Shown here: positions 2,526-64,000 of the stretch, piece by piece
How positions within the stretch are numbered: the stretch's first letter is position 1
Layout of the letters: each line of letters starts with the position of its first letter
Origin: Acidobacteriota bacterium
Lineage (GTDB): Bacteria; Acidobacteriota; Polarisedimenticolia; Gp22-AA2
Assembly: GCA_046758905.1 (NCBI GenBank)
Contig: JBHIBC010000001.1
Span: forward strand, 32,343 to 96,342
Length of the DNA stretch: 64,000 bases
Reading direction: 5' to 3'
Position numbers and translations under genes: made by a program
The notes under the pieces: model-generated
The model's input: only the letters and a program-made list of their open reading frames with translations
Told to the model about the DNA's origin: nothing
The model's database searches: none

Positions 2526-4019
2526 ATGGCGCTCGAGCAGAAGCTGAGCCTGCGGATGGCGCAGAGGCTGATCATGACGCCGTCCCTGCAGCAGGCCATC
2601 AAGCTGCTGCAGATGACCAAGCTCGAGCTGCAGGAGGAGAACAACCAGGAGCTGACCGAGAACCCGCTGCTCGAGGAGCTGCAGGAGGTCGCGGAGACGT
2701 CGTCCGAGACCGACAAGACGGAGGGCGGCGAGGAGGAGACCTCGGCCCCCTCGCCCGCCGAGGCCGGCGGGGCGGAGTCGGCGGAAGCCGACGGGGGCCC
2801 GGCGGAGGATAGGGAGCGCGACTCCTTCGACGAGATCGATTACGAGTCGTACTTCCAGGACTACATGGACCTCTCCTACGCGCCGCGTGCGAGCTCGGAG
2901 GAGATCGAGACGCGGCCGCTGGAGAACGTCCTGAGCAAGCCGCAGAGCCTGGCCGACCACCTCCTGTGGCAGCTCGACATGAACATCACGACGGCGCGGC
3001 AGAAGGAGATCGGCCGGGCCATCATCGGCAACCTCGACGACGACGGCTACCTGCAGGCCACGCTGGAGGAGATCGCCGCCATGGGCCCCTGGCCGGTGGA
3101 GGAGGTCGAGCGCACCCTGCACGTAATCCAGGACTTCGACCCGCCCGGCGCGGGGGCCCGCGACCTGAGGGAATGCCTGCTGATCCAGCTCGCTTACCAC
3201 GACATGGAGGGCACGCCGGCCGAGACCATCATCAAGGAGCACATGGGCCTCCTGCAGACGCGCAGGTTTCGGGATCTGGCGCAGGTGCTGGGTTGCGGGC
3301 TCGAGGAGGTGAGGGAGTACGTCGAGACCATCCGCCACCTGGACCCCAAGCCGGGCAGGAAGTACAATTACGGGAGCAACACCTACGTGGTCCCGGACGT
3401 CTTCGTCGTCAAGGTCGACAAGGGCTACACCATCGTGCTGAACGAGGACGGGCTTCCGCGCCTGCGGATCAGTCCCTTCTACCGGCGGATGATCGATCGC
3501 GGCAATACGCAGGTATCGCGGGAGACGCGCGAGTACGTGCGCGAGAAGTTCCGCTCCGCCTTCCGTCTGATCAAGAGCCTCGAGGAGCGCCAGCGCACCA
3601 TCTACAAGGTGGCCCGAAGCATCGTGAAGCACCAGCAGGCGTTCCTGGACTACGGCTACGAGCACCTGCGCCCCCTGATCCTCAAGAACGTCGCCGACGA
3701 CATCGGGATGCACGAGTCCACCGTCAGCCGCGTGGTGAACCAGAAGTACATGCACACCCCGCGCGGCCTGTTCGAGATGAAGTTCTTCTTCCACTCCAGC
3801 ATCAGCTCGACCCTCGGGGAGGACGTGTCCTCCCTGACCGTGAAGGAGCGGATCAAGAAGGTCGTCGCGGAGGAGGACCCGAAGCATCCCCTGTCGGATG
3901 CGGCCATCGTTCAGGTCCTGAGCCGGGAGGGGCTGCGGATCGCGCGGCGCACCGTGGCCAAGTACCGCGAGGAGCTGCGCATCCGATCGTCGAACGAGAG
4001 GCGCCAGGGATTCCGTTGA
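2526..4019 (+). CDS. rpoN: RNA polymerase sigma-54 factor
   Basis: The N-terminal region I (LSLRMAQRLIMTPSLQQAIKLLQ) is followed by an acidic linker. A C-terminal RpoN box (ARRTVAKYR) is present. It follows lptB as in canonical loci. Confidence 0.9.
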   Translation: MALEQKLSLRMAQRLIMTPSLQQAIKLLQMTKLELQEENNQELTENPLLEELQEVAETSSETDKTEGGEEETSAPSPAEAGGAESAEADGGPAEDRERDSFDEIDYESYFQDYMDLSYAPRASSEEIETRPLENVLSKPQSLADHLLWQLDMNITTARQKEIGRAIIGNLDDDGYLQATLEEIAAMGPWPVEEVERTLHVIQDFDPPGAGARDLRECLLIQLAYHDMEGTPAETIIKEHMGLLQTRRFRDLAQVLGCGLEEVREYVETIRHLDPKPGRKYNYGSNTYVVPDVFVVKVDKGYTIVLNEDGLPRLRISPFYRRMIDRGNTQVSRETREYVREKFRSAFRLIKSLEERQRTIYKVARSIVKHQQAFLDYGYEHLRPLILKNVADDIGMHESTVSRVVNQKYMHTPRGLFEMKFFFHSSISSTLGEDVSSLTVKERIKKVVAEEDPKHPLSDAAIVQVLSREGLRIARRTVAKYREELRIRSSNERRQGFR

Positions 4020-54676: not shown

Positions 54677-56244
54677 TCGATGGTCGATGGTGGCTTGCTG
54701 CTGATGTCGTAGACGACGCGGTTGATCCCGGGCACTGAATTGACGATGTGCGCGCTCACCCTGGCCAGGAAATCCTCCGGGAGGCGCGCCCAGTCCGCGG
54801 TCATGAAGTCGTCGGTGGTCACGGCGCGCAGAGCGAGCACGTTCTCGTAGGTGCGGTCGTCGCCCATGACGCCCACCGACTTGACGGGAAGGAGCACCGC
54901 GAAGGCCTGGGCGGTCTCCTCATAGAGGCTCCGCCCGGACCGGCCGGTCGCGGAGCGCAGCTCGGAGGTGAAGATGGCGTCGGCGCGCCTCAGGAGGGCG
55001 AGCCGCTCCGCGGTCACCTCGCCCAGGATGCGCACCGCCATCCCCGGCCCCGGGAACGGGTGCCGCGCGAGGATGCGGGACGACAGGCCCAGACGGCGCC
55101 CCACGGCGCGGACCTCGTCCTTGAACAGCTCCCGCAGCGGCTCCACCAGCTCGAGACGCATTCGCTCCGGCAACCCGCCCACGTTGTGGTGCGTCTTGAT
55201 CACCGCCGAGGGCCCCCTGAAGGGCGTCGACTCGATGAGATCCGGGTAGAGCGTCCCCTGGGCCAGGAATCCGACCGGGCCGACCCTGGCGGCCTCCTCC
55301 TCGAACACCTCGACGAACGCGCGGCCGACGACCCGCCGCTTCTCCTCGGGATCGAGCACTCCGCGCAGCGCCTGCAGGAACCGCCGAGAGGCGTCGACCG
55401 CGCGGACCGGCAGGTGGTAGGTCTCGGCGAAAGTGTCCACCACCTCGCGGGCCTCGTCGAGGCGGAGCAGGCCGTTGTCGATGAAAAGGCAGATGAGCCG
55501 GTCGCCGATCGCCCTGTGGATCATCAGCGCCATGACCGCGGAGTCGACCCCTCCGCTCAGCCCGGCGATCACCCGGCCCCCGCCGACCCGGTCGCGGATC
55601 GCCCGAACCGATTCCTCCAGGAACGAGGCGATGCGCCAGCTCCCCGAGCAGCCGCAGATCCGGTACAGGAAATTCCTGAGGATCTCCGACCCATGTCGGG
55701 TGTGCGAGACCTCAGGGTGGAACTGGATGCCGTAGAGCCGGCGGGACGCGTCCGCCATCGCGGCGCAACGGGACGAGGTGCTGCGCGCGATCACCGAGAA
55801 GCCGTCGGGAGGCTGCCGGATCTCGTCCCCGTGGCTCATCCAGATCGGCTGGGCCGCGGGGGTTCCCTCGAACAGCGGCGACCCCCCGAGGACCTCGAGG
55901 TCGGAGGGGCCGAACTCGCGTCCCTCGGAGCGCTGCACGCGGCCCTGCAGCACGTACGCCATCAGCTGCATGCCGTAGCAGATGCCGAGCACCGGCACCC
56001 CGAGGTCGAAGACCCCGCGGTCGAGCCGCGGCGCGCGCGGGGCGTACACCGAATCGGGGCCGCCCGAGAGCACCAGGCCCTTGGCGCCGCGCGCCCGCAA
56101 CGCCTCGACGGGCGTGTCGAAGCGCACCAGCTCGCTGTAGACCTTGAGCTCGCGGATCCGCCGCGCGATCAGCTGGCTGTACTGCGAGCCGAAGTCGAGC
56201 ACCAGGACGACCTCGCGGCGGGCGGGAGCGGCCGGCCTGCTCAC
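54667..56244 (-). CDS. guaA: GMP synthase (glutamine-hydrolysing)
   Basis: A GATase domain ([12 protein letters not shown]...GICYGMQ), an ATP-pyrophosphatase P-loop (SGGVDSAV) and the C-terminus [14 protein letters not shown] are present. It uses a GTG start. The upstream half of track ORF 54667..57753 is an out-of-frame artefact. Confidence 0.9.
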
Positions 56245-57266
56245 GCGGGCCTCGTCGCGCCCCGGGCCACGCGGTGGATCAGCCGCTCGAGCGCGTGCGC
56301 CGGATCCCGGGACCCGGCTCCCTTCAGCTCCCGGTCGGCGCGCAGGCACAGCGCGAGCGCCTCCCGGAGCCGGCCGACGGGGACGTCCCCCACCTCTGCC
56401 CGCATCCGCTCGACCCGCCCGGGGTCGATCCCGTAGGTCGACTGCAGCTCGCGCGGCGGGATCCTTCGCCCCGCCGCCGAGCGGGCCTTGAGCGCCATGC
56501 GCACGTACCAGGAGAGCGCCCCCAAGAGGGGCAGGGGGTCCTCCCCCTGTCGCAGCAGGCCGCGCACCGCGGCGACCGCCTCGCCGCCACGGCCGCGCAC
56601 CATCTGCCGTGCGGCGGCCCAGACGTCGCCGACGCGCGGCACCCCCGCCAGGATCTCCAGATCCTCCGGGCGGACCGGGCGCGGCGGGCCGATGGCGCTC
56701 ATCAGCTTCTGGAGCTCGGAGTCCAGCCGTCCGAGCCCCTGCCCCTGGAAGCCCGCCGCGATCGCCTCGGCCAGGTCGGCCGTCACGCCGTAGCCCCGCG
56801 CCTGCAGCCTCTCGCGCACCCAGCCCGGCATGCGCGCCTCGCCGGGCGGGGCGCACTCGACCAGCGTCGCCCCCCGCTGCAGAGCGCGCCACATCGCCCT
56901 GCGGCGGTCGAAGCGGAGGTCGCTGAACATCAGGCAGGTCTTCGGGTTGGGCCGATCGAGGTAGCGCTCCAGGGGATCGGCCGACTGCAGCCGCACCGCA
57001 TCCGCGTCCCTGACCACCACCAGCCTCCGCCCGCCGCCCATCGGATAGGTGGCGGCGATGTCGAGGACCATCTCCAGCGTCGCCTCGTCGCCGTGCACCA
57101 GGTCGCGGTCGACCGCCGCGGACCCCTCGGCGAGCACCGCCCGCTCCAGCAGCCGCACCGCCTCGTCGTGCAGGAAGGGCTCCTCCCCGTCGAAGCAGTA
57201 GACCGCCTCGACCCGCCCGCGCAGCAGCGACTGCTGGAACTGCGGGAAGCTCATGCGGACGGGCAT
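56241..57266 (-). CDS. holA: DNA polymerase III delta subunit
   Basis: It shows a HolA-like length and pattern. It has the conserved position between lptE and downstream genes (leuS-lptE-holA synteny). Confidence 0.65.
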
Positions 57267-57272
57267 CGCGCC

Positions 57273-57857
57273 TCAAAACCCCTCGAGGATGGAGGTGACG
57301 ACGCTGCGGGCGAAGTCGGTGGCGACGTCGTCGATCGCGATGATCTCCTGGTCCAGGCCGAGCAGAGGCGTCTGGGGCACGTCGTACTGCTGCGTGAACA
57401 GGAAGTGGTCGTCCTCCCACAGCACCTCGTCGGTGGCCACCACCGTCAGGACCACGCGCGCCGTGAGGAGGATCTCGTAGCGCGTGGCCCGGCCCTCCTC
57501 GTCGATGCTGACCGGCGTGGAGGTGTAGCTCAGGATCGCCCCCCGGAGGACCGCGTCGGCCCCCTCCTCCCCCGGGAGGATCCGTCGCCGGCCGCGGGTG
57601 CTGAACTCGTCGATGATATGCTCGGTGATCCGTTGCTCGAGCTCGGGCCGGGCGGTCCGGTTGGCGAACGGTGGGATCCCGATCGATCTCAGGTCGGGCG
57701 GCAGGACGTTCGAGTGACCGGTCAGGTGGTAGCCGCAGCCGAGGGCCGGCCACAGCAGCGCCGCGAGGGCGAGGGAGGCCGCGGCGCCCGCGCCGCGGGC
57801 CTCGGCCCCGGCGCAGAACGGGGGGCGGGCCCGGCGTCCTCGATCCATGTCTCGCAT
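57273..57857 (-). CDS. lptE: LPS-assembly lipoprotein LptE
   Basis: A lipobox (LGC|GYHL) follows the signal peptide. It is in the conserved leuS-lptE-holA order. Confidence 0.6.
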
Positions 57858-57879
57858 TATAGCGTCGCTGGCGCCGCTC

Positions 57880-60384
57880 TCACCCGACGACGATGTTGAG
57901 CAGCCTCCCCGGCAGGTAGATCGTCTTCCTGAGCTCGCGCCCCTCGAGGTGGGCGGCGACCCGGCGATCGGCGCGGGCCAGCTCGACCACCTCGGCCTCG
58001 GGGAGGGACGCGGTCACGCGCAGGCGGCCGCGCACCCTCCCGTTGACTTGGACCACGAGCTCCACCTCGTCCTCCTCGAGCCAGCGCGGCTCGGGCCGCG
58101 GCCACGGCTGCCCGAGGGCGCTTCCCGTCCCGCCCAGCGCCGCCCACAGCTCCTCCGAGACGTGCGGCGCGAACGGCTGCAAGAGGAGGGCCAGGGTCGA
58201 CCCCAGCTCCTTGAGGTAGGGGGCGTCCCCGTCCCGCCACCCCCTGGCGAACTCCTGACCCGCGTTGAGCAGCTCCATGGCCGCGGCCACGGGCGTGTTG
58301 AGGTGCAGGCGCCGGTCGATGTCGACGGTGACCCTGCGGATGGTCCGGTGGATCTTCCGCCTCAGGGCGGCGCGACGCTCGTCCCCGGCGCCGTCGCCGG
58401 GCCCGAGCCGCGCCGCGGCGGCGAGCTCGCCCGAGCGGGGCATCAGCAGCCGCCACACCTTCTCCAGGAAGCGGAAGCAGCCCTCCACGCCCCGCTCGTC
58501 CCACTCGAGGTCCTTCTCGGGCGGCGCCGCGAACAGAGTGAACAGGCGCGTCGTATCGGCGCCGTAGCGGCGGATCAGGTCGTCGGGGTCGACGATGTTC
58601 CCCTTCGATTTCGACATCGCCGTCCCGCCCTTGAGCACCATGCCCTGGCAGAGGAGGCTCTTCACCGGCTCGCCCGTCGACGCCAGGCCAAGGTCGCGCA
58701 GCACCTTGGCGAAGAACCGGCAGTAGATGAGGTGCATCGTGGCGTGCGTGATCCCGCCGATGTACAGGTCGATCGGGAACCACGAGGCGATGATGTCCGG
58801 CGCGAACGGAGCGCCCTCGTTGCGGGGGTCGCAGTAGCGGTAGAAGTACCAGGAGGAATCGAAGAAGGTGTCCATGGTGTCGGACTCGCGGCGCCCCGGG
58901 CCGCCGCACCTCGGGCAGGGGGCCCTGAGGAACGATTCGTCCCGCGCCAGGGGGGAGCCGCCCGCCCCGGTCAGCGGCACCTCCTCCGGGAGCACGACCG
59001 GCAGATCCTGGTCGGGGACCGGGACCGTCCCGCACCCGTCGCAGTAGATCACCGGGATCGGAGTCCCCCAGTACCGCTGGCGCGATATCCCCCAGTCCAG
59101 CAGCCGGTAGTGGACCGAGGCGCGCGCGTACCCGCCCGACTCGCCCGCCCGGAGCATCTCCCGGCGCGCCTCTCCGGAGGTCCGCCCCGCGTAGGGTCCC
59201 GAGCGGACCAGCACCCCGTCCTCGACCATCGCCGCCTCCGGCTCGTCGTCGCTCGGCGCCGCGCCGGGAGGGACGATCACGGTGCGGATCGGGAGGGAGT
59301 ACCTGCGCGCGAACTCGTAGTCGCGCTCGTCGTGCGCCGGGACCGCCATGACGGCGCCTGTGCCGTACCCCATGAGGACGAAGTTGGCGACGAAGACCGG
59401 CAGCGTGTCCCCGCTATAGGGATTCCGGACCCTGAGCCCGGTGTCCACCCCGGCCTTCTCCACCGGCTCCTCTCCCGGCGCCGCCGGCGCGCGCCGCTCC
59501 TGCTCGCGCAGGAAGGCCTCCACCCGGCGCCCGCGGGGCGACCCCCGCGGGACGCGCGACAGGATCGGATGCCCCGGGGCCACGACGCAGAACGTGGCGC
59601 CGTAGATCGTGTCGAGGCGCGTCGTGAACACCTCGACCGAGTCGGGCGCCCCGCCGCCCGGCGCGCCGACCACCGGGAAGCGGACCAGCGCCCCCTCGCT
59701 GCGTCCGATCCAGCTGCGCTGCATCGATCGGACCCGCTCCGGCCAGCCCGTCAGGCGGTCCAGCTCGGCGTCGAGCTCCTCGGCGTACGCGGTGATCTTC
59801 AGGAACCACTGATCGAGCTCCTTCTGCCCCACCGCACAGTCGCAGCGCCAGCAGCGGCCCCCCTCCACCTGCTCGTTGGCGAGGACCGTCCGGCACGAGG
59901 CGCACCAGTTCACCGCCCGCCGGCTGCGGTAGGCCAGCCCCCGCTCCAGCATGCGCAGGAAGAACCACTGGTTCCAGCGGTAGTAGTCGGGACGGTGCGC
60001 GGCGATCTCCCGGTCCCAGTCGTAGGACAGCCCCAGCCGGCGCAGCTGCCGCCCCATGGCGGCGATGTTGTCATCGGTCCACCGGGCCGGGTGTACGCCG
60101 CGCTGGATCGCCGCGTTCTCGGCGGGCAGGCCGAAGGAGTCCCATCCCATCGGGTGGAGCACCTGGCGGCCGCGCATGCGGTGGTAGCGGGCCACCGCGT
60201 CGCCGATGGCGTAGTTGCGGACGTGCCCCATGTGCAGGCGGCCCGAGGGGTAAGGGAGCATCTCGAGACAGTAGAAATGGGCGCCGCGCGGCTTGGCCGG
60301 CGCCGCGAACGCGCGCGCCTGCCGCCAGCGCTCCTGCCAGCGCCGCTCGATGGTGTCGAAGAGCTCCCTGTAGTCACCCCGCAT
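57880..60384 (-). CDS. leuS: leucyl-tRNA synthetase
   Basis: HIGH (YPSGRLHMGHVRNY) and KMSKS (MSKSKGN) motifs are present over 834 aa. Confidence 0.95.
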   Translation of the reverse strand: MRGDYRELFDTIERRWQERWRQARAFAAPAKPRGAHFYCLEMLPYPSGRLHMGHVRNYAIGDAVARYHRMRGRQVLHPMGWDSFGLPAENAAIQRGVHPARWTDDNIAAMGRQLRRLGLSYDWDREIAAHRPDYYRWNQWFFLRMLERGLAYRSRRAVNWCASCRTVLANEQVEGGRCWRCDCAVGQKELDQWFLKITAYAEELDAELDRLTGWPERVRSMQRSWIGRSEGALVRFPVVGAPGGGAPDSVEVFTTRLDTIYGATFCVVAPGHPILSRVPRGSPRGRRVEAFLREQERRAPAAPGEEPVEKAGVDTGLRVRNPYSGDTLPVFVANFVLMGYGTGAVMAVPAHDERDYEFARRYSLPIRTVIVPPGAAPSDDEPEAAMVEDGVLVRSGPYAGRTSGEARREMLRAGESGGYARASVHYRLLDWGISRQRYWGTPIPVIYCDGCGTVPVPDQDLPVVLPEEVPLTGAGGSPLARDESFLRAPCPRCGGPGRRESDTMDTFFDSSWYFYRYCDPRNEGAPFAPDIIASWFPIDLYIGGITHATMHLIYCRFFAKVLRDLGLASTGEPVKSLLCQGMVLKGGTAMSKSKGNIVDPDDLIRRYGADTTRLFTLFAAPPEKDLEWDERGVEGCFRFLEKVWRLLMPRSGELAAAARLGPGDGAGDERRAALRRKIHRTIRRVTVDIDRRLHLNTPVAAAMELLNAGQEFARGWRDGDAPYLKELGSTLALLLQPFAPHVSEELWAALGGTGSALGQPWPRPEPRWLEEDEVELVVQVNGRVRGRLRVTASLPEAEVVELARADRRVAAHLEGRELRKTIYLPGRLLNIVVG

Positions 60385-60591
60385 CGTCGCCCTGTGGACC
60401 GGAGAGGGCCTCCGGACCGGACTCCGGAGGCAACCCTGTGGGGAGCGTATTGTAGCGGAAAAGCGCGTCCGGGCGCGCTCCCCCGTGCGGCGCGAGCACC
60501 GCCGCGAGCGGCTGCCGACGCCGCTCGCGGCGCGACCCGCGGAGCCGCGGTTTCAGGATCGTAACGCCGGAAGCCTCGCCGGGTCCGCAAC

Positions 60592-60619
60592 TTGATGCGC
60601 CGCACTGTGAACATATATT
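60592..60619 (+). promoter_or_regulatory. near-consensus sigma70 promoter TTGATG-N16-TATATT upstream of the rSAM peptide-modification operon
   Basis: The hexamers were read from the sequence. A strong SD (AGGGAGGAA) lies 5 nt before the ATG at 60656. Confidence 0.5.
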
Positions 60620-60655
60620 GCCTGAGCTGCGGCCCGCAGCGCCAGGGAGGAACCG

Positions 60656-61804
60656 ATGCTCGGCGCCCCATCGCCACGGATCCAGCCTGCCCTCGAGAAG
60701 CCGGCCAACCGATCGACCACGCTGCTCGAGCTGCTGGCGTCCCCGTCCCCCGAGCCGGCGGCGCTGCGCCATGCGTTGCGCTGCCTGCCGGGCGCCGAGG
60801 TGCCGCGGCTGCTCGAGCGGATCCGCTTGCACCGCATCGATGGCCTGGCGCACCGGGTCCTGAGCCGGCTGCCGCGGGGCGCTGCAGACCCGTGGCTGCG
60901 CTCCACGCTGAAGCGCCGTCACCAGCGGATCGCCGCCGCCACCCTGTCGCAGGCGCTGGCGCTGGCGGAGCTGCTGGACGCCTTCAGGAGCGCGCGCGTG
61001 CCGGTGGTGGTCATGCGGGGGCTGCGCTGCGTCGAGGCCGTCTACGGCGACGCCGGCGCCCGGCCGTTCGACGACCACGATCTCCTGATCCCCCGGGCGA
61101 GCGTCGGCAGCGCCCATGCTGTGCTCGAGCGCCAGGGGTTTCGCGAGCGGGCCCGAGGGCTGTACCGCCGTGGCGGTGTGCTCGTCGACCTCCACACCGA
61201 CGCGCTGGGGGCGAGGCGACGCCCCACCCGCCTGGCGGCCTTCCCCGTGTGGACCGAGGTCCTGTTGGCGCGCGCCGTGCCGGGGGTGGTGGCCGGTGCC
61301 CCCGCCTCGATCCTCCCCCTCGAGGACGAGCTGCTCCTGCTGGCCATCCACGTCGTGAAGCACTCCTTCGATCGGCTCATCCGGGTCGCCGATCTGGCGC
61401 ACCTGATCGCGAGCCGCGCCTCGTCGATCGATTGGGAGGCGCTGCGCCGCCGGTGCGAGGCGACGCGCACCGACAAGCTCCTCGGGTGGGCTCTGGAGGC
61501 GGCCGCCCTGCTGGGCGCGCCGTCGCCGCCGGAGCTGCGCGCGGAGGGCGGCGCGGGCCGGCTCGAGAGAGCCCTGATGCGGCGCGCGCTGGCGTGGAGG
61601 CCGGTGCCGTACACGGGAGAGATCCTCATGGCCCTCGCCATCCCCTCCCGCGCCCGACGCCTGGCGTTCCTCCTGGACGCGCTGGTGCCGGGAGGAGAGG
61701 TGCCGGACGGCCTGCGCAGGAGGACCGCCTTCGTCTCCGGACGGACCGTGGCTCTGATGCGCGACGGCGTCCGGCACATCGCTTCCCGCGGAGGCGGCCG
61801 GTGA
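60656..61804 (+). CDS. nucleotidyltransferase family protein (NTP_transf_5/PF14907-like)
   Basis: The core block is VVVMRGLRCVEAVYGDAGARPFDDHDLLIP. It is typical of the uncharacterised nucleotidyltransferases found beside PqqD-like proteins in peptide-modification loci. Confidence 0.6.
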   Translation: MLGAPSPRIQPALEKPANRSTTLLELLASPSPEPAALRHALRCLPGAEVPRLLERIRLHRIDGLAHRVLSRLPRGAADPWLRSTLKRRHQRIAAATLSQALALAELLDAFRSARVPVVVMRGLRCVEAVYGDAGARPFDDHDLLIPRASVGSAHAVLERQGFRERARGLYRRGGVLVDLHTDALGARRRPTRLAAFPVWTEVLLARAVPGVVAGAPASILPLEDELLLLAIHVVKHSFDRLIRVADLAHLIASRASSIDWEALRRRCEATRTDKLLGWALEAAALLGAPSPPELRAEGGAGRLERALMRRALAWRPVPYTGEILMALAIPSRARRLAFLLDALVPGGEVPDGLRRRTAFVSGRTVALMRDGVRHIASRGGGR

Positions 61805-62115
61805 GCGCCCCGGACCTCGATCGCGTCGCCCTGCACCCCTCTCCCGATGTGGTCTCGCGGGACATCGCGGGTGAGCATCTGCTGGTGCCGGTGCGCCGCG
61901 GTGCGGCGCAGATGGATTACATCTTCACCGCCAACCGGGTCGGGGCGCGCATCTTCGGCCTGCTCGACGGCCGCCGCGCGGCGCTGGAGATCGCGCGGCT
62001 CGTCAGCCTCGAGTTCGAGGTCGCACCGGAGCGCGCCCATGCGGACGTCCTGGGGTTCCTGCTGGCGTTGTGGCGCTCGGGGCTGGCGCGCCCGGTGGAG
62101 GAGCGAGGTCCATGA
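61801..62115 (+). CDS. PqqD-family protein (RiPP recognition element-like)
   Basis: It is ~105 aa with a GTG start overlapping the upstream stop (GTGA). The PqqD pattern is GEHLLVPVRRGAAQMDYIFTANRVGARIFGLLDGRRAALEIARLV...ADVLGFLLALWRSGL. It corresponds only to the C-terminal part of track ORF 60592..62115. Confidence 0.65.
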   Translation: MSAPDLDRVALHPSPDVVSRDIAGEHLLVPVRRGAAQMDYIFTANRVGARIFGLLDGRRAALEIARLVSLEFEVAPERAHADVLGFLLALWRSGLARPVEERGP

Positions 62116-63425
62116 CCGCCTGTCACGAAGTCTCCTACAGCGAGTGGGGCAACGCTGTGCGGCGAGCCAGCCGGGGAACGCGCCTGCCGCTTTCCGGATC
62201 GTTCGAGATCACCTTCCGGTGCAATCTCCGCTGCGTCCACTGTTACATCCCCGACTTCTCCGGCAGGGGCGAGTTGACGACCGGCGAGGTCAAGAGGGTG
62301 CTGGACGAGATCGCCGACGCGGGCTGTCTCTGGCTTCTGCTGACCGGGGGAGAGATCCTGACGCGGAAGGACTTCCCCGAGATCTATCTGCACGCCAAGC
62401 GGCGGGGCTTCCTGCTGACCCTGTACACCAACGGCACGCTCCTTGATGCCCGCACCGCCGATCTCCTCGCGGAGTACCCGCCCCTGGGCACGGAGATCAC
62501 CCTGTACGGACTGTCGGACGAGACCTATCTCAGGACCACGGGGTTCCCCGGCCGCTTCACCGCCGTGCGCCGGGCGATCGACCTGCTGCTCGAGCGGGGC
62601 TTGCGTCTCGCCCTGAAGGCGGTGGCGATGGAGCCGCTGTCGGGCGAGATCCACCGCATGGAGGAGTTCTGCCGCTCGATCGGCGTCCCTTTCCGCTACG
62701 ACCCGATCATCCACGCCCGCCTGGACGGATCGCTGGCCCCGACCAAGGCCCGGCCCGCGCCCGAGCGGGTGGTCGGCTACGACGGCGACGATCCGGCGCG
62801 CATGGCGGAGTGGCGGAAGTACTACGAGCGCTATGTCCTCGAGGCGCCGCGGACCGATCTCCTGCTGTCGTGCGGCGCGGGGCTCAACAGCTTCCACATC
62901 GACCCCAAGGGGGTTCTGCTCACCTGCGAGGCGCTGCCGCTCAACGGGTACGACCTGCGGCGGGGCAGCTTCCTCGAGGGATGGTACGGCATCGTCGGGG
63001 AGCTTCGCGATCGCAGGGCCGCCGCCGGGAACGTCTGCGCCGGCTGCGAGCTGCGCGGCATGTGCGACCGCTGCCCGGCCACCGCGACCCTGGAGACCGG
63101 CAGCCCCGACGGGTGGATACCGTACTTCTGCGAGATCACCTACCGCCGGGCCGCCCTGCTCGAGAGGGCCAACGGCAACCGGGAGAAAGCCGAGCGCTAT
63201 CTCGCGCACGCCCGTGAGGTCGCCGCCGGCTGGACCCCTCCGGGCGCCATTCTTCCGCGGGCGATCGGGGCCGGCGGCAGCGCGAGCCCCTGTGGGTCGG
63301 GGGGGTGCTCCTCGGGCGCCTGCGCGGCGGGGGCCGCGCGGCCGCAGACCTCCCGTCCGATCCGGACCGAGATCCCCGGGGCATCCCCCGGGCCGAGAAG
63401 GAGGGAGACCGATCATGAATCGTGA
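62112..63425 (+). CDS. radical SAM enzyme with C-terminal SPASM-type auxiliary cysteine cluster (peptide maturase-like)
   Basis: The radical SAM motif is CNLRCVHC. The C-terminal cluster is CAGCELRGMCDRC...YFC. The ATG overlaps the PqqD stop (ATGA). Confidence 0.85.
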   Translation: MTACHEVSYSEWGNAVRRASRGTRLPLSGSFEITFRCNLRCVHCYIPDFSGRGELTTGEVKRVLDEIADAGCLWLLLTGGEILTRKDFPEIYLHAKRRGFLLTLYTNGTLLDARTADLLAEYPPLGTEITLYGLSDETYLRTTGFPGRFTAVRRAIDLLLERGLRLALKAVAMEPLSGEIHRMEEFCRSIGVPFRYDPIIHARLDGSLAPTKARPAPERVVGYDGDDPARMAEWRKYYERYVLEAPRTDLLLSCGAGLNSFHIDPKGVLLTCEALPLNGYDLRRGSFLEGWYGIVGELRDRRAAAGNVCAGCELRGMCDRCPATATLETGSPDGWIPYFCEITYRRAALLERANGNREKAERYLAHAREVAAGWTPPGAILPRAIGAGGSASPCGSGGCSSGACAAGAARPQTSRPIRTEIPGASPGPRRRETDHES

Positions 63426-63606
63426 CCATACGAAGGCGGGGACGGGGCCGCGGCAGGCCTACGAGCCCCCTCAGCTGCGGCGGGTTCGCCTCGTGCCGGA
63501 TGAGGCGGTCCTGGCCTCCTGCAAGAACAACGTCACCAACGGGCCAACCGGGATCGCGGGCAAGTGCATCGGCCAGCCATCCCAGTGTTTCATGAATGAG
63601 TCCTAA
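63415..63606 (+). CDS. 63-aa Cys-containing peptide (candidate RiPP precursor)
   Basis: The peptide is MNRDHTKAGTGPRQAYEPPQLRRVRLVPDEAVLASCKNNVTNGPTGIAGKCIGQPSQCFMNES. Its ATG overlaps the rSAM stop by 11 nt. The strongest SD in the window (AAGGAGGGAG) lies 8 nt upstream. It is the last 63 codons of track ORF 62833..63606. Confidence 0.5.
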   Translation: MNRDHTKAGTGPRQAYEPPQLRRVRLVPDEAVLASCKNNVTNGPTGIAGKCIGQPSQCFMNES

Positions 63607-64000
63607 GGCGGAGAACAGCCTCGTCCTGGAGGTGGCCCGGATCGGTCTGGAGATCCAGGCGACCGACGCGGACATCCGCCTGGTGGCCGAGCCGGCGCAC
63701 CTGCCGTTCCTCGCGGAGGCCCCGGGGGGGGACTGCTCCACCGTGATCCTGGGGCCGTCTTCGGGACGCGCCCTGTACCGCGTGCGGGGCAAGACCCTGT
63801 TCGACACGGGGTCGGTGTGGCGGCTGCAGGAGTATGGCGAGCACCGCCTGCTCACTTTCCGCTCCCCCATCTTCGGACGGGACCCCTACCTGTCGGTCGA
63901 GTTCGACCGCGACTACAGCCACGGGATCGGGCAGACCCTGATCGGCGGCCCCCACCTCGGCCACGGGGAGCTGCACCCGTTCGTCTACCCCTTCGACGAG
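63596..64000 (+). CDS. hypothetical protein, 3' partial (runs off window), not in ORF track
   Basis: ATG at 63596 overlaps the peptide-ORF stop. It is open for 135 codons to the window edge. The translation looks protein-like (MSPKAENSLVLEVARIGLEIQATDADIRLVAEPAHLPFLAEA...). Confidence 0.4.
   Translation, partial: MSPKAENSLVLEVARIGLEIQATDADIRLVAEPAHLPFLAEAPGGDCSTVILGPSSGRALYRVRGKTLFDTGSVWRLQEYGEHRLLTFRSPIFGRDPYLSVEFDRDYSHGIGQTLIGGPHLGHGELHPFVYPFDE

Follow-up and report, generated by a model that had tools for sequence, protein, structure and literature searches.

A candidate RiPP cassette joining a radical SAM/SPASM enzyme to an HprK-like kinase in an Acidobacteriota bacterium

We analyzed a 64,000-nucleotide stretch of contig JBHIBC010000001.1 from an Acidobacteriota bacterium (Polarisedimenticolia), referred to here as the window. 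At its end (positions 60592-64000, + strand) the ORF list and reading of the sequence gave five open reading frames (ORFs) chained by the start/stop overlaps that an initial annotation of the sequence had described (Table 1). They encode a nucleotidyltransferase (NTase), a discrete PqqD-type recognition element (RRE), a radical SAM (rSAM)/SPASM enzyme, a 63-amino acid (aa) peptide and an HprK-like P-loop kinase. The initial annotation had proposed a candidate system for a peptide that is made on the ribosome and then modified post-translationally (RiPP), and our analysis supported this. Our best reading is that the cassette is an uncharacterized, widely distributed rSAM-bearing relative of the systems that make linear polyphosphorylated peptides (LPP) and phosphorylated lasso peptides.

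Table 1. Features of the cassette in window coordinates
Feature	Position	Strand	Detail
Sigma-70-like promoter candidate	60592..60619	+	TTGATG-N16-TATATT, 9/12 matches, 37 nt 5' of ORF1 ATG (promoter scan)
Shine-Dalgarno-like AGGGAGGA	60644..60651	+	5 nt 5' of ORF1 start, strong, read from sequence
ORF1, 382 aa, NTP_transf_5 nucleotidyltransferase	60656..61804	+	PF14907
ORF2, 104 aa, discrete PqqD-type RRE	61801..62115	+	PF05402; GTGA shared with ORF1 stop
ORF3, 437 aa, rSAM/SPASM enzyme	62112..63425	+	PF04055; ATGA shared with ORF2 stop
CxxxCxxC motif of ORF3, CNLRCVHC (residues 37-44)	62220-62243	+	ORF3 sequence
Seven SPASM Cys of ORF3: C254 C272 C309 C312 C318 C321 C340	62871-63131	+	invariant in 15 homologues
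Clade-specific Cys-rich C-terminal tail of ORF3 (residues 385-437)	63264-63422	+	GWTPxGAILPRA ... CxSGGCxxxxC
ORF4, 63-aa precursor peptide	63415..63606	+	conserved family; 11-nt overlap with ORF3
Leader motif YEPPQL of ORF4	63460-63477	+	lasso-type YxxPx[LIV]; begins at Tyr16
Cys36-Lys37 of ORF4	63520-63525	+	peptide pattern
Cys51 of ORF4	63565-63567	+	peptide pattern
Cys58 of ORF4	63586-63588	+	peptide pattern
C-terminal Ser63 of ORF4	63601-63603	+	peptide ends Glu-Ser
ORF5, HprK-like P-loop kinase, first 135/313 aa	63596..64000	+	11-nt overlap with ORF4; runs off window

The first three proteins were evaluated with the profiles named in the initial annotation. ORF1 scored 138.6 bits against PF14907 (NTP_transf_5; cut-off 31.2, E 3.6e-40), bearing out the claim of an NTP_transf_5-type nucleotidyltransferase; no NCBIfam model matched it and comparison of its sequence with the PDB returned nothing useful. 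ORF2 reached 41.6 bits against PF05402 (PqqD; cut-off 23.4), the Pfam threshold against which the proposed stand-alone PqqD-like RRE was to be judged, and gave weak NCBIfam matches to ScmD and to lasso PqqD chaperones. ORF3 passed PF04055 (Radical_SAM) with 78.8 bits against a cut-off of 29.5, and the CxxxCxxC motif and C-terminal SPASM-like cluster claimed for it were both found, with cysteines invariant in its homologues (Table 1). TIGR04085, the SPASM model and the last of the four profiles proposed, was the one that did not pass, at 25.2 bits and marginally below its cut-off of 27.

All of the best NCBIfam matches of ORF3 were far below cut-off and no non-peptide equivalog was reached. The highest was MftC (84 against a cut-off of 265, with a nearly full-length alignment), and the anaerobic sulfatase-maturases (anSME) were not among the best 25 of its 59 NCBIfam matches. 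By sequence the nearest solved structures were SkfB, the best PDB match, and PqqE. An AlphaFold2 model (predicted local distance difference test score, pLDDT, of 76) gave fold matches to SuiB (top), PqqE, MoaA, SkfB, CteB and anSME. These matches and the model place ORF3 among the SPASM peptide maturases, a placement that leaves the chemistry undecided. ORF3 also showed the generic features of an rSAM/SPASM RiPP maturase, namely the CxxxCxxC motif, the seven-Cys SPASM region and an adjacent conserved precursor and RRE. The motif of its C-terminal tail was found only in the Acidobacteriota/Verrucomicrobiia clade and was missing from relatives at 45-49% identity; the tail was predicted to be disordered (pLDDT < 50).

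As the initial annotation had stated, the locus continues past the window end. A public contig of 3.5 kb (L001) was 100% identical to window 62948-64000 and added about 2.5 kb downstream, which completed ORF5, left unnamed in that annotation, at 313 aa with its end equivalent to window 64537. The Walker A sequence GTSGAGKTT was located in this added part. ORF5 carried a precomputed Pfam hit to PF27840 (ScmC) and sub-threshold NCBIfam matches to ScmC (37 against 125) and HprK-related kinase B. Searching the kinase profile against the PDB by sequence returned mostly generic P-loop matches. An AlphaFold model built on 20 homologues (pLDDT 89.5, predicted template modeling score 0.88) had an HprK/PEPCK-type fold, and GxSGxGK[ST]T, SDDR and GTPWHGE were invariant in the family. 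Based on the ScmC hit, the fold and the invariant motifs, ORF5 is an HprK-like P-loop kinase.

The peptide ORF4, described in the initial annotation as unlike the classic precursors, matched no family in Pfam or NCBIfam. Codons 16-37 were compared with three orthologues, giving 12, 6 and 7 synonymous and 1, 3 and 3 nonsynonymous changes; this excess of synonymous changes indicates that ORF4 is a real gene under purifying selection. A profile built from 27 locus-derived peptides found 248 proteins in a word-indexed search and at least 1,824 cluster representatives (clusters at 50% identity, E <= 1e-3) in an exhaustive search. All database matches listed were "hypothetical" or unnamed and none had a Pfam family. 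The top of the profile search, P0361 (1,823 aa with 12 repeats of PYKSPEIEGISL), was discarded as a chance repeat match.

The family shares the leader Y-x-x-P-x-[LIV]-x-x-[IV]-x-L-x-x-[DE]-E followed by a core with nearly fixed positions. The first Cys (Cys1) was exactly 20 residues past the Tyr in 139 of 142 representatives, was directly followed by Lys in 140/142 peptides and was mostly preceded by A-x-G. Three Cys were present in 139/142, with spacings of 12-15 and 4-5 residues, and five residues followed the third Cys to the peptide end. The C-terminal residue was Ser in 118/120 and Thr in 2/120 members of one set, and Ser in 140/145 and Thr in 5/145 of the representatives; all 265 database members examined ended in Ser or Thr, and the penultimate residue was usually Gly. 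In the window peptide the matching positions are Tyr16, Cys36-Lys37, Cys51, Cys58 and Ser63. The sequence V-L-A-S-C (residues 32-36, window 63508-63522) contains L-A-S-C, which could be read as a lipobox. This was rejected because the leader carries invariant acidic residues and the RRE motif and has no hydrophobic core; V-L-A-S-C reads instead as a putative signal-peptidase-type site with small residues at -3 and -1. In locus L025 two short precursor copies of 35-36 aa (2647-2742 and 3901-3999) flank the rSAM gene, with WxxP in place of YxxP and two Cys only.

Conservation of the gene set was assessed across genomes. About 100 orthologues of the rSAM enzyme at 57-74% identity came from Acidobacteriota (including Polarisedimenticolia) and Verrucomicrobiia metagenome-assembled genomes (MAGs), with a second tier of homologues at 45-49% identity. 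A synteny scan using one genome per species returned 80 loci. An HprK-like gene adjoined the rSAM gene in 29 of these, all from MAGs, and a PqqD homologue accompanied 28 of the 29. These loci came from Acidobacteriota, Verrucomicrobiota, Omnitrophota, Aerophobetes, Nitrospirota, Chloroflexota, Fermentibacteria, Bdellovibrionales, Kiritimatiellia, Elusimicrobia and Planctomycetota, among others. A small ORF of one family stood beside the rSAM gene in nearly every kinase-bearing locus. It usually separated the rSAM gene from the kinase gene, but in some loci it lay ahead of the former or past the latter.

Partner genes were then compared between 35 kinase-containing rSAM loci and 52 rSAM loci without a kinase. 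NTP_transf_5 homologues were found in 16/35 versus 1/52 loci, S24/S26-type (signal-peptidase-like) peptidases in 23/35 versus 0/52, Peptidase_C25 giant proteins in 14/35 versus 0/52 and Wza/Wzc polysaccharide genes in 7-8/35 versus 1/52. The Peptidase_C25 (gingipain-family) proteins beside the cassette ranged from about 1,000 to more than 2,200 aa (L007, L008, L010, L012, L013, L015-L018, L022, L024, L039, L085 and L086).

The signal-peptidase-like protein passed TIGR02228 (archaeal-type signal peptidase I; cut-off 51.85) in L006 (55.3) and L087 (56.5), and its S-M, H-R and G-D motifs (Ser, His, Asp) were invariant. The corresponding domain of L082 and L084, relatives in the clade of the window, scored 29.9 bits, below cut-off. 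In this clade the operon was read from two independent contigs. The NTase, PqqD, rSAM, 63-aa peptide and kinase genes come first, followed by a response regulator, a T2SSE-like ATPase with an HD domain and a 464-aa protein, and then by a Wzc-like GNVR/AAA_31 protein, a Wzy_C protein and glycosyltransferases. These genes share a strand and each overlaps or abuts the next, and the cassette therefore heads an exopolysaccharide operon in this clade. The 464-aa protein is encoded three genes downstream of the kinase (L082 15148-16542; L084 15145-16539). Its N-terminal domain is signal-peptidase-like (GSSMLP..VHR..GD; E 4e-7 against TIGR02228) and is joined through a hydrophobic segment to a Wza-like exporter part with Poly_export and SLBB domains. 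In the genome of the window the ATPase gene, which carries an HD/HDIG domain and is conserved in the clade relatives, directly follows the kinase (L001 1618-3546, equal to window 64565 onward); the response regulator is absent, unlike in L002 and L082-L084. There was no signal-peptidase gene in the window, and the sequence of this genome reaches only the end of L001, inside the ATPase gene. Elsewhere the signal-peptidase-like domain was fused to a GNAT acetyltransferase (L009 3149-4078; L087 12317-13357) or to both GNAT and NTP_transf_5 (L004 3892-5970), which hints at a possible acetylation after leader removal in those lineages.

The closest characterized systems are the LPP and the phosphorylated lasso peptides. 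LPP were described from the lpp cluster of Paenibacillus alginolyticus (Popov et al., Nat Commun 2026, PMC13381572). The LPP core consists of SpI (TIGR02228), a PqqD RRE, an HprK-like kinase and NTP_transf_5, and TIGR02228, PqqD and NTP_transf_5 ("putative NTP transferase") are the domain names given in the supplement; the leader is YxxPxVLxHQxIxFETxxS, with YxxPx[LVI] as the shared part, the clusters are often within capsular polysaccharide loci and the family is described as confined to Bacillota (PMC13381572). The cassette resembles LPP in its discrete PqqD RRE, HprK-like kinase and NTP_transf_5 protein, in the YxxPx[LIV] leader and in the polysaccharide-locus setting. The peptidase may be a further parallel, as the relatives L006 and L087 carry one that passes TIGR02228. 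It differs in having an rSAM/SPASM enzyme and a fixed core of three Cys that ends in Ser/Thr, while the LPP core is variable and phosphorylated on Ser3, and neither "radical" nor "SPASM" is mentioned in the text of the LPP paper or the supplements searched (PMC13381572). Only YxxPx[LIV] of the LPP leader is common to this family and the remainder diverges. An MsbA-like pump, an LPP core gene, was not seen in this clade; no ABC transporter lay within 10 kb in L082 or L084, and some distant relatives, L087 and L020 among them, have one. Finally, LPP are described from Bacillota only whereas this family is found in Acidobacteriota and many other phyla, and in the clade of the window one protein holds both the peptidase and the Wza-like exporter.

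For lasso precursors, HPr-kinase homologues phosphorylate the C-terminal Ser, for which the paeninodin-type kinases are specific, a nucleotidyltransferase adds hexoses to that Ser phosphate in pseudomycoidin, and a stand-alone RRE recognizes the [Y/W]xxPxL leader (PMC8498205). The cassette shares the HPr-kinase homologue, nucleotidyltransferase, discrete RRE and YxxPxL-type leader with these phosphorylated lasso peptides (paeninodin and pseudomycoidin). It has an rSAM/SPASM enzyme in place of the ring-forming enzyme, and neither the Asn-synthetase-like cyclase (C) nor the transglutaminase-like B2 protease was found among the window ORFs or in L001, L082 and L084. The initial annotation had called the NTase an unusual partner for rSAM/SPASM systems; NTases are the usual partner of HprK-like kinases in the phosphorylated lasso and LPP pathways, and its presence is thus explained.

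Other systems resembled the cassette in part. SynChlorMet (SCM; TIGR04248-04251, PF27840) has a PqqD homologue, an rSAM/SPASM enzyme and an HprK-like protein of the ScmC family. However, the SCM cassette carries two rSAM genes, the second being ScmF, versus a single one here, and the NCBIfam scores were far below cut-off (ScmC 37/125, ScmD 24/100, ScmE 59/400). SCM is not known to have an assigned precursor. Two or three rSAM genes stood together with PqqD and the kinase in L019, L020 and L023, which may be true SynChlorMet-type cassettes. The sactipeptide and ranthipeptide maturases (SkfB, CteB, AlbA, PapB) are likewise SPASM rSAM enzymes acting on Cys-containing, leader-bearing peptides; this cassette differs in its separate RRE and its kinase, NTase and signal-peptidase-like set, and it reached no equivalog threshold. 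Mycofactocin and PQQ (MftB/MftC, PqqD/PqqE) also pair a discrete PqqD-type chaperone with a SPASM rSAM enzyme on a short peptide, but the peptide here lacks a Val-Tyr or Glu..Tyr target and the genes for the later steps of those pathways are missing. Across the NCBIfam equivalogs for SCM, GeoRSP, mycofactocin, sactipeptides and ranthipeptides, all cassette proteins scored below cut-off. A literature search returned nothing relevant on SynChlorMet, HprK-related proteins, GeoRSP, HPr-rel-A or an HPr kinase paired with radical SAM, SPASM or exopolysaccharide.

These comparisons suggest a pathway in five steps. The RRE (ORF2) would bind the YxxPx[LIV] leader, as expected from the motif and from LPP and lasso precedent. 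The rSAM/SPASM enzyme would then modify the core around the three Cys, with thioether cross-links as the most likely product; the observations behind this step are the class of the enzyme and the conservation of the Cys. The kinase would phosphorylate the C-terminal Ser, possibly repeatedly, a prediction drawn from the near-universal terminal Ser/Thr and from the paeninodin-type kinases, and the NTase may add a sugar or nucleotide to the Ser phosphate by analogy with pseudomycoidin. The signal-peptidase-like domain would remove the leader, probably just before Cys-Lys, given the small -3/-1 residues and the example of LppS. The pathway probably serves a function linked to the cell surface or to exopolysaccharide.

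We favor, with moderate confidence, the reading of the cassette as a RiPP-type, rSAM-bearing relative of the phosphorylated lasso peptides and LPP that follows this pathway. Each of the three findings named in the initial annotation as able to overturn a RiPP system turned out the other way: the nearest solved relatives of the rSAM enzyme were peptide maturases (SkfB, PqqE, SuiB, CteB) and not a non-peptide family, the small ORF was conserved beside the rSAM gene across phyla as part of a large family, and the PqqD-like ORF passed its profile. Several points weigh against the pathway. ORF3 did not reach the equivalogs of the sactipeptide and ranthipeptide families (AlbA 61/850, StsB 71/625, PapB 41/340), which the initial annotation had given as examples and which are at most a guess at the chemistry, and cross-link acceptor residues are not conserved in the peptide family. 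The terminal Ser/Thr was missing from 3 of the 27 locus-derived peptides, only 16 of the 35 kinase-containing loci had the NTase, and it is only from the relatives L002, L003 and L082-L084, not from the genome of the window, that the genes for the peptidase and the exporter are known. LppK phosphorylates core Ser3 and not a terminal Ser, making the kinase target uncertain, and LppN was inactive on heterologous expression (PMC13381572). For every family member the chemistry is inferred.

The step most open to another explanation is that of the rSAM enzyme. The same cassette could carry out chemistry other than Cys thioether formation, such as a C-C or C-N cross-link involving the invariant Lys next to Cys1, epimerization or an MftC-like change at the C-terminus. 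The top fold match SuiB forms a Lys-Trp cross-link, MftC was the best NCBIfam match and aligned over nearly its full length, Lys follows Cys1 in 140/142 peptides and none of the thioether-forming equivalogs was reached. The three Cys and their spacing, however, are the most conserved core features, a conserved aromatic partner is lacking, the MftC score of 84 is far under its cut-off of 265 and the family ends in Gly-Ser and not Val-Tyr. We therefore regard non-thioether chemistry as possible but doubtful.

The kinase could also act on a residue close to where leader and core meet, in the manner of LppK on core Ser3, or on a sugar or partner protein in place of the terminal Ser. The window peptide offers Ser35 immediately before Cys36, but this position is Gly in most members (A-x-G before Cys1), and both the Ser/Thr ending of all 265 database members examined and the recognition of a C-terminal Ser by paeninodin-type kinases (PMC8498205) point to the terminus. 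A different kinase target is thus unlikely.

A PQQ- or mycofactocin-like cofactor pathway, in which a few C-terminal residues are excised to yield a phosphorylated or nucleotidylated small molecule, would have the same architecture, in which PqqD and an rSAM enzyme resembling PqqE/MftC accompany a small peptide, and would suit a locus that lies among housekeeping genes with a GC content of 72% as compared to 71% for the window. Against this, no MftE/PqqF-like excision peptidase or oxidoreductase genes were found in the L082 and L084 loci, the whole core length is conserved with three fixed Cys, and the leader peptidase and kinase match LPP/lasso logic; we consider it highly improbable. Maturation of a protein encoded elsewhere by an anSME-like enzyme, with the small ORF present by chance, draws on the anSME structures among the fold matches and on the many spurious ORFs of GC-rich DNA, but it is refuted by the conservation of the small ORF in sequence, position and length across phyla, its 1,824 cluster representatives and its excess of synonymous changes, and is barely credible.

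A more specific and speculative extension of the favored pathway concerns its product. The leader peptidase and a Wza-like exporter form one protein, and the cassette shares its transcription unit with wza, wzc, wzy and glycosyltransferase genes. On these grounds a cross-linked peptide bearing a phosphate-linked sugar on its terminal Ser might be more than a free product and might be handed directly to exopolysaccharide export as a primer, anchor or checkpoint. We put this forward as something of a long shot.

The surroundings of the cassette were also surveyed. The sigma-70-like promoter and strong Shine-Dalgarno sequence claimed ahead of ORF1 were both present (Table 1). The promoter is well placed but is not one of the best in the window as had been stated, since among the 17 sites of this kind across the window 10 outscore its 9/12. 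The scan gave 2 promoter-like sites in 8 kb versus 0.2 expected. A promoter-like site, GTGAGA-N16-TATAAT (10/12), lies on the - strand at 57883-57856, at the 3' end of leuS. Upstream of the cassette, the - strand ORF at 57880-60384 is leuS, as initially annotated and as borne out by the domains that Pfam assigns to the L082 orthologue. No terminator-like sites were detected in window 56000-64000 and no RNA family in an Rfam scan of 60000-64000, and a search of the window for additional peptide, kinase, rSAM or signal-peptidase genes came back empty. Long ORFs lie opposite leuS (57847-60564, +, 905 aa) and opposite the rSAM gene (61917-63416, -, 499 aa); these are probably not genes but artefacts of the high GC content (71%).

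The cassette represents a new combination, in which rSAM/SPASM modification of a Cys-rich core is joined to the RRE, HprK-kinase, NTase and signal-peptidase set, the two having previously been described separately. That set was reported in 2026 as restricted to Bacillota, and this family extends its range well beyond. With at least 1,824 clusters at 50% identity, the precursors form a large family that is present in many mostly uncultured phyla. If the proposed pathway is right, the terminal Ser should be phosphorylated, the leader should be cut off before Cys-Lys and free thiols should be lost in an rSAM-dependent manner. The peptidase-exporter fusion and the recurrence of the cassette beside Wza/Wzc genes offer a way into the function of phosphorylated peptides.

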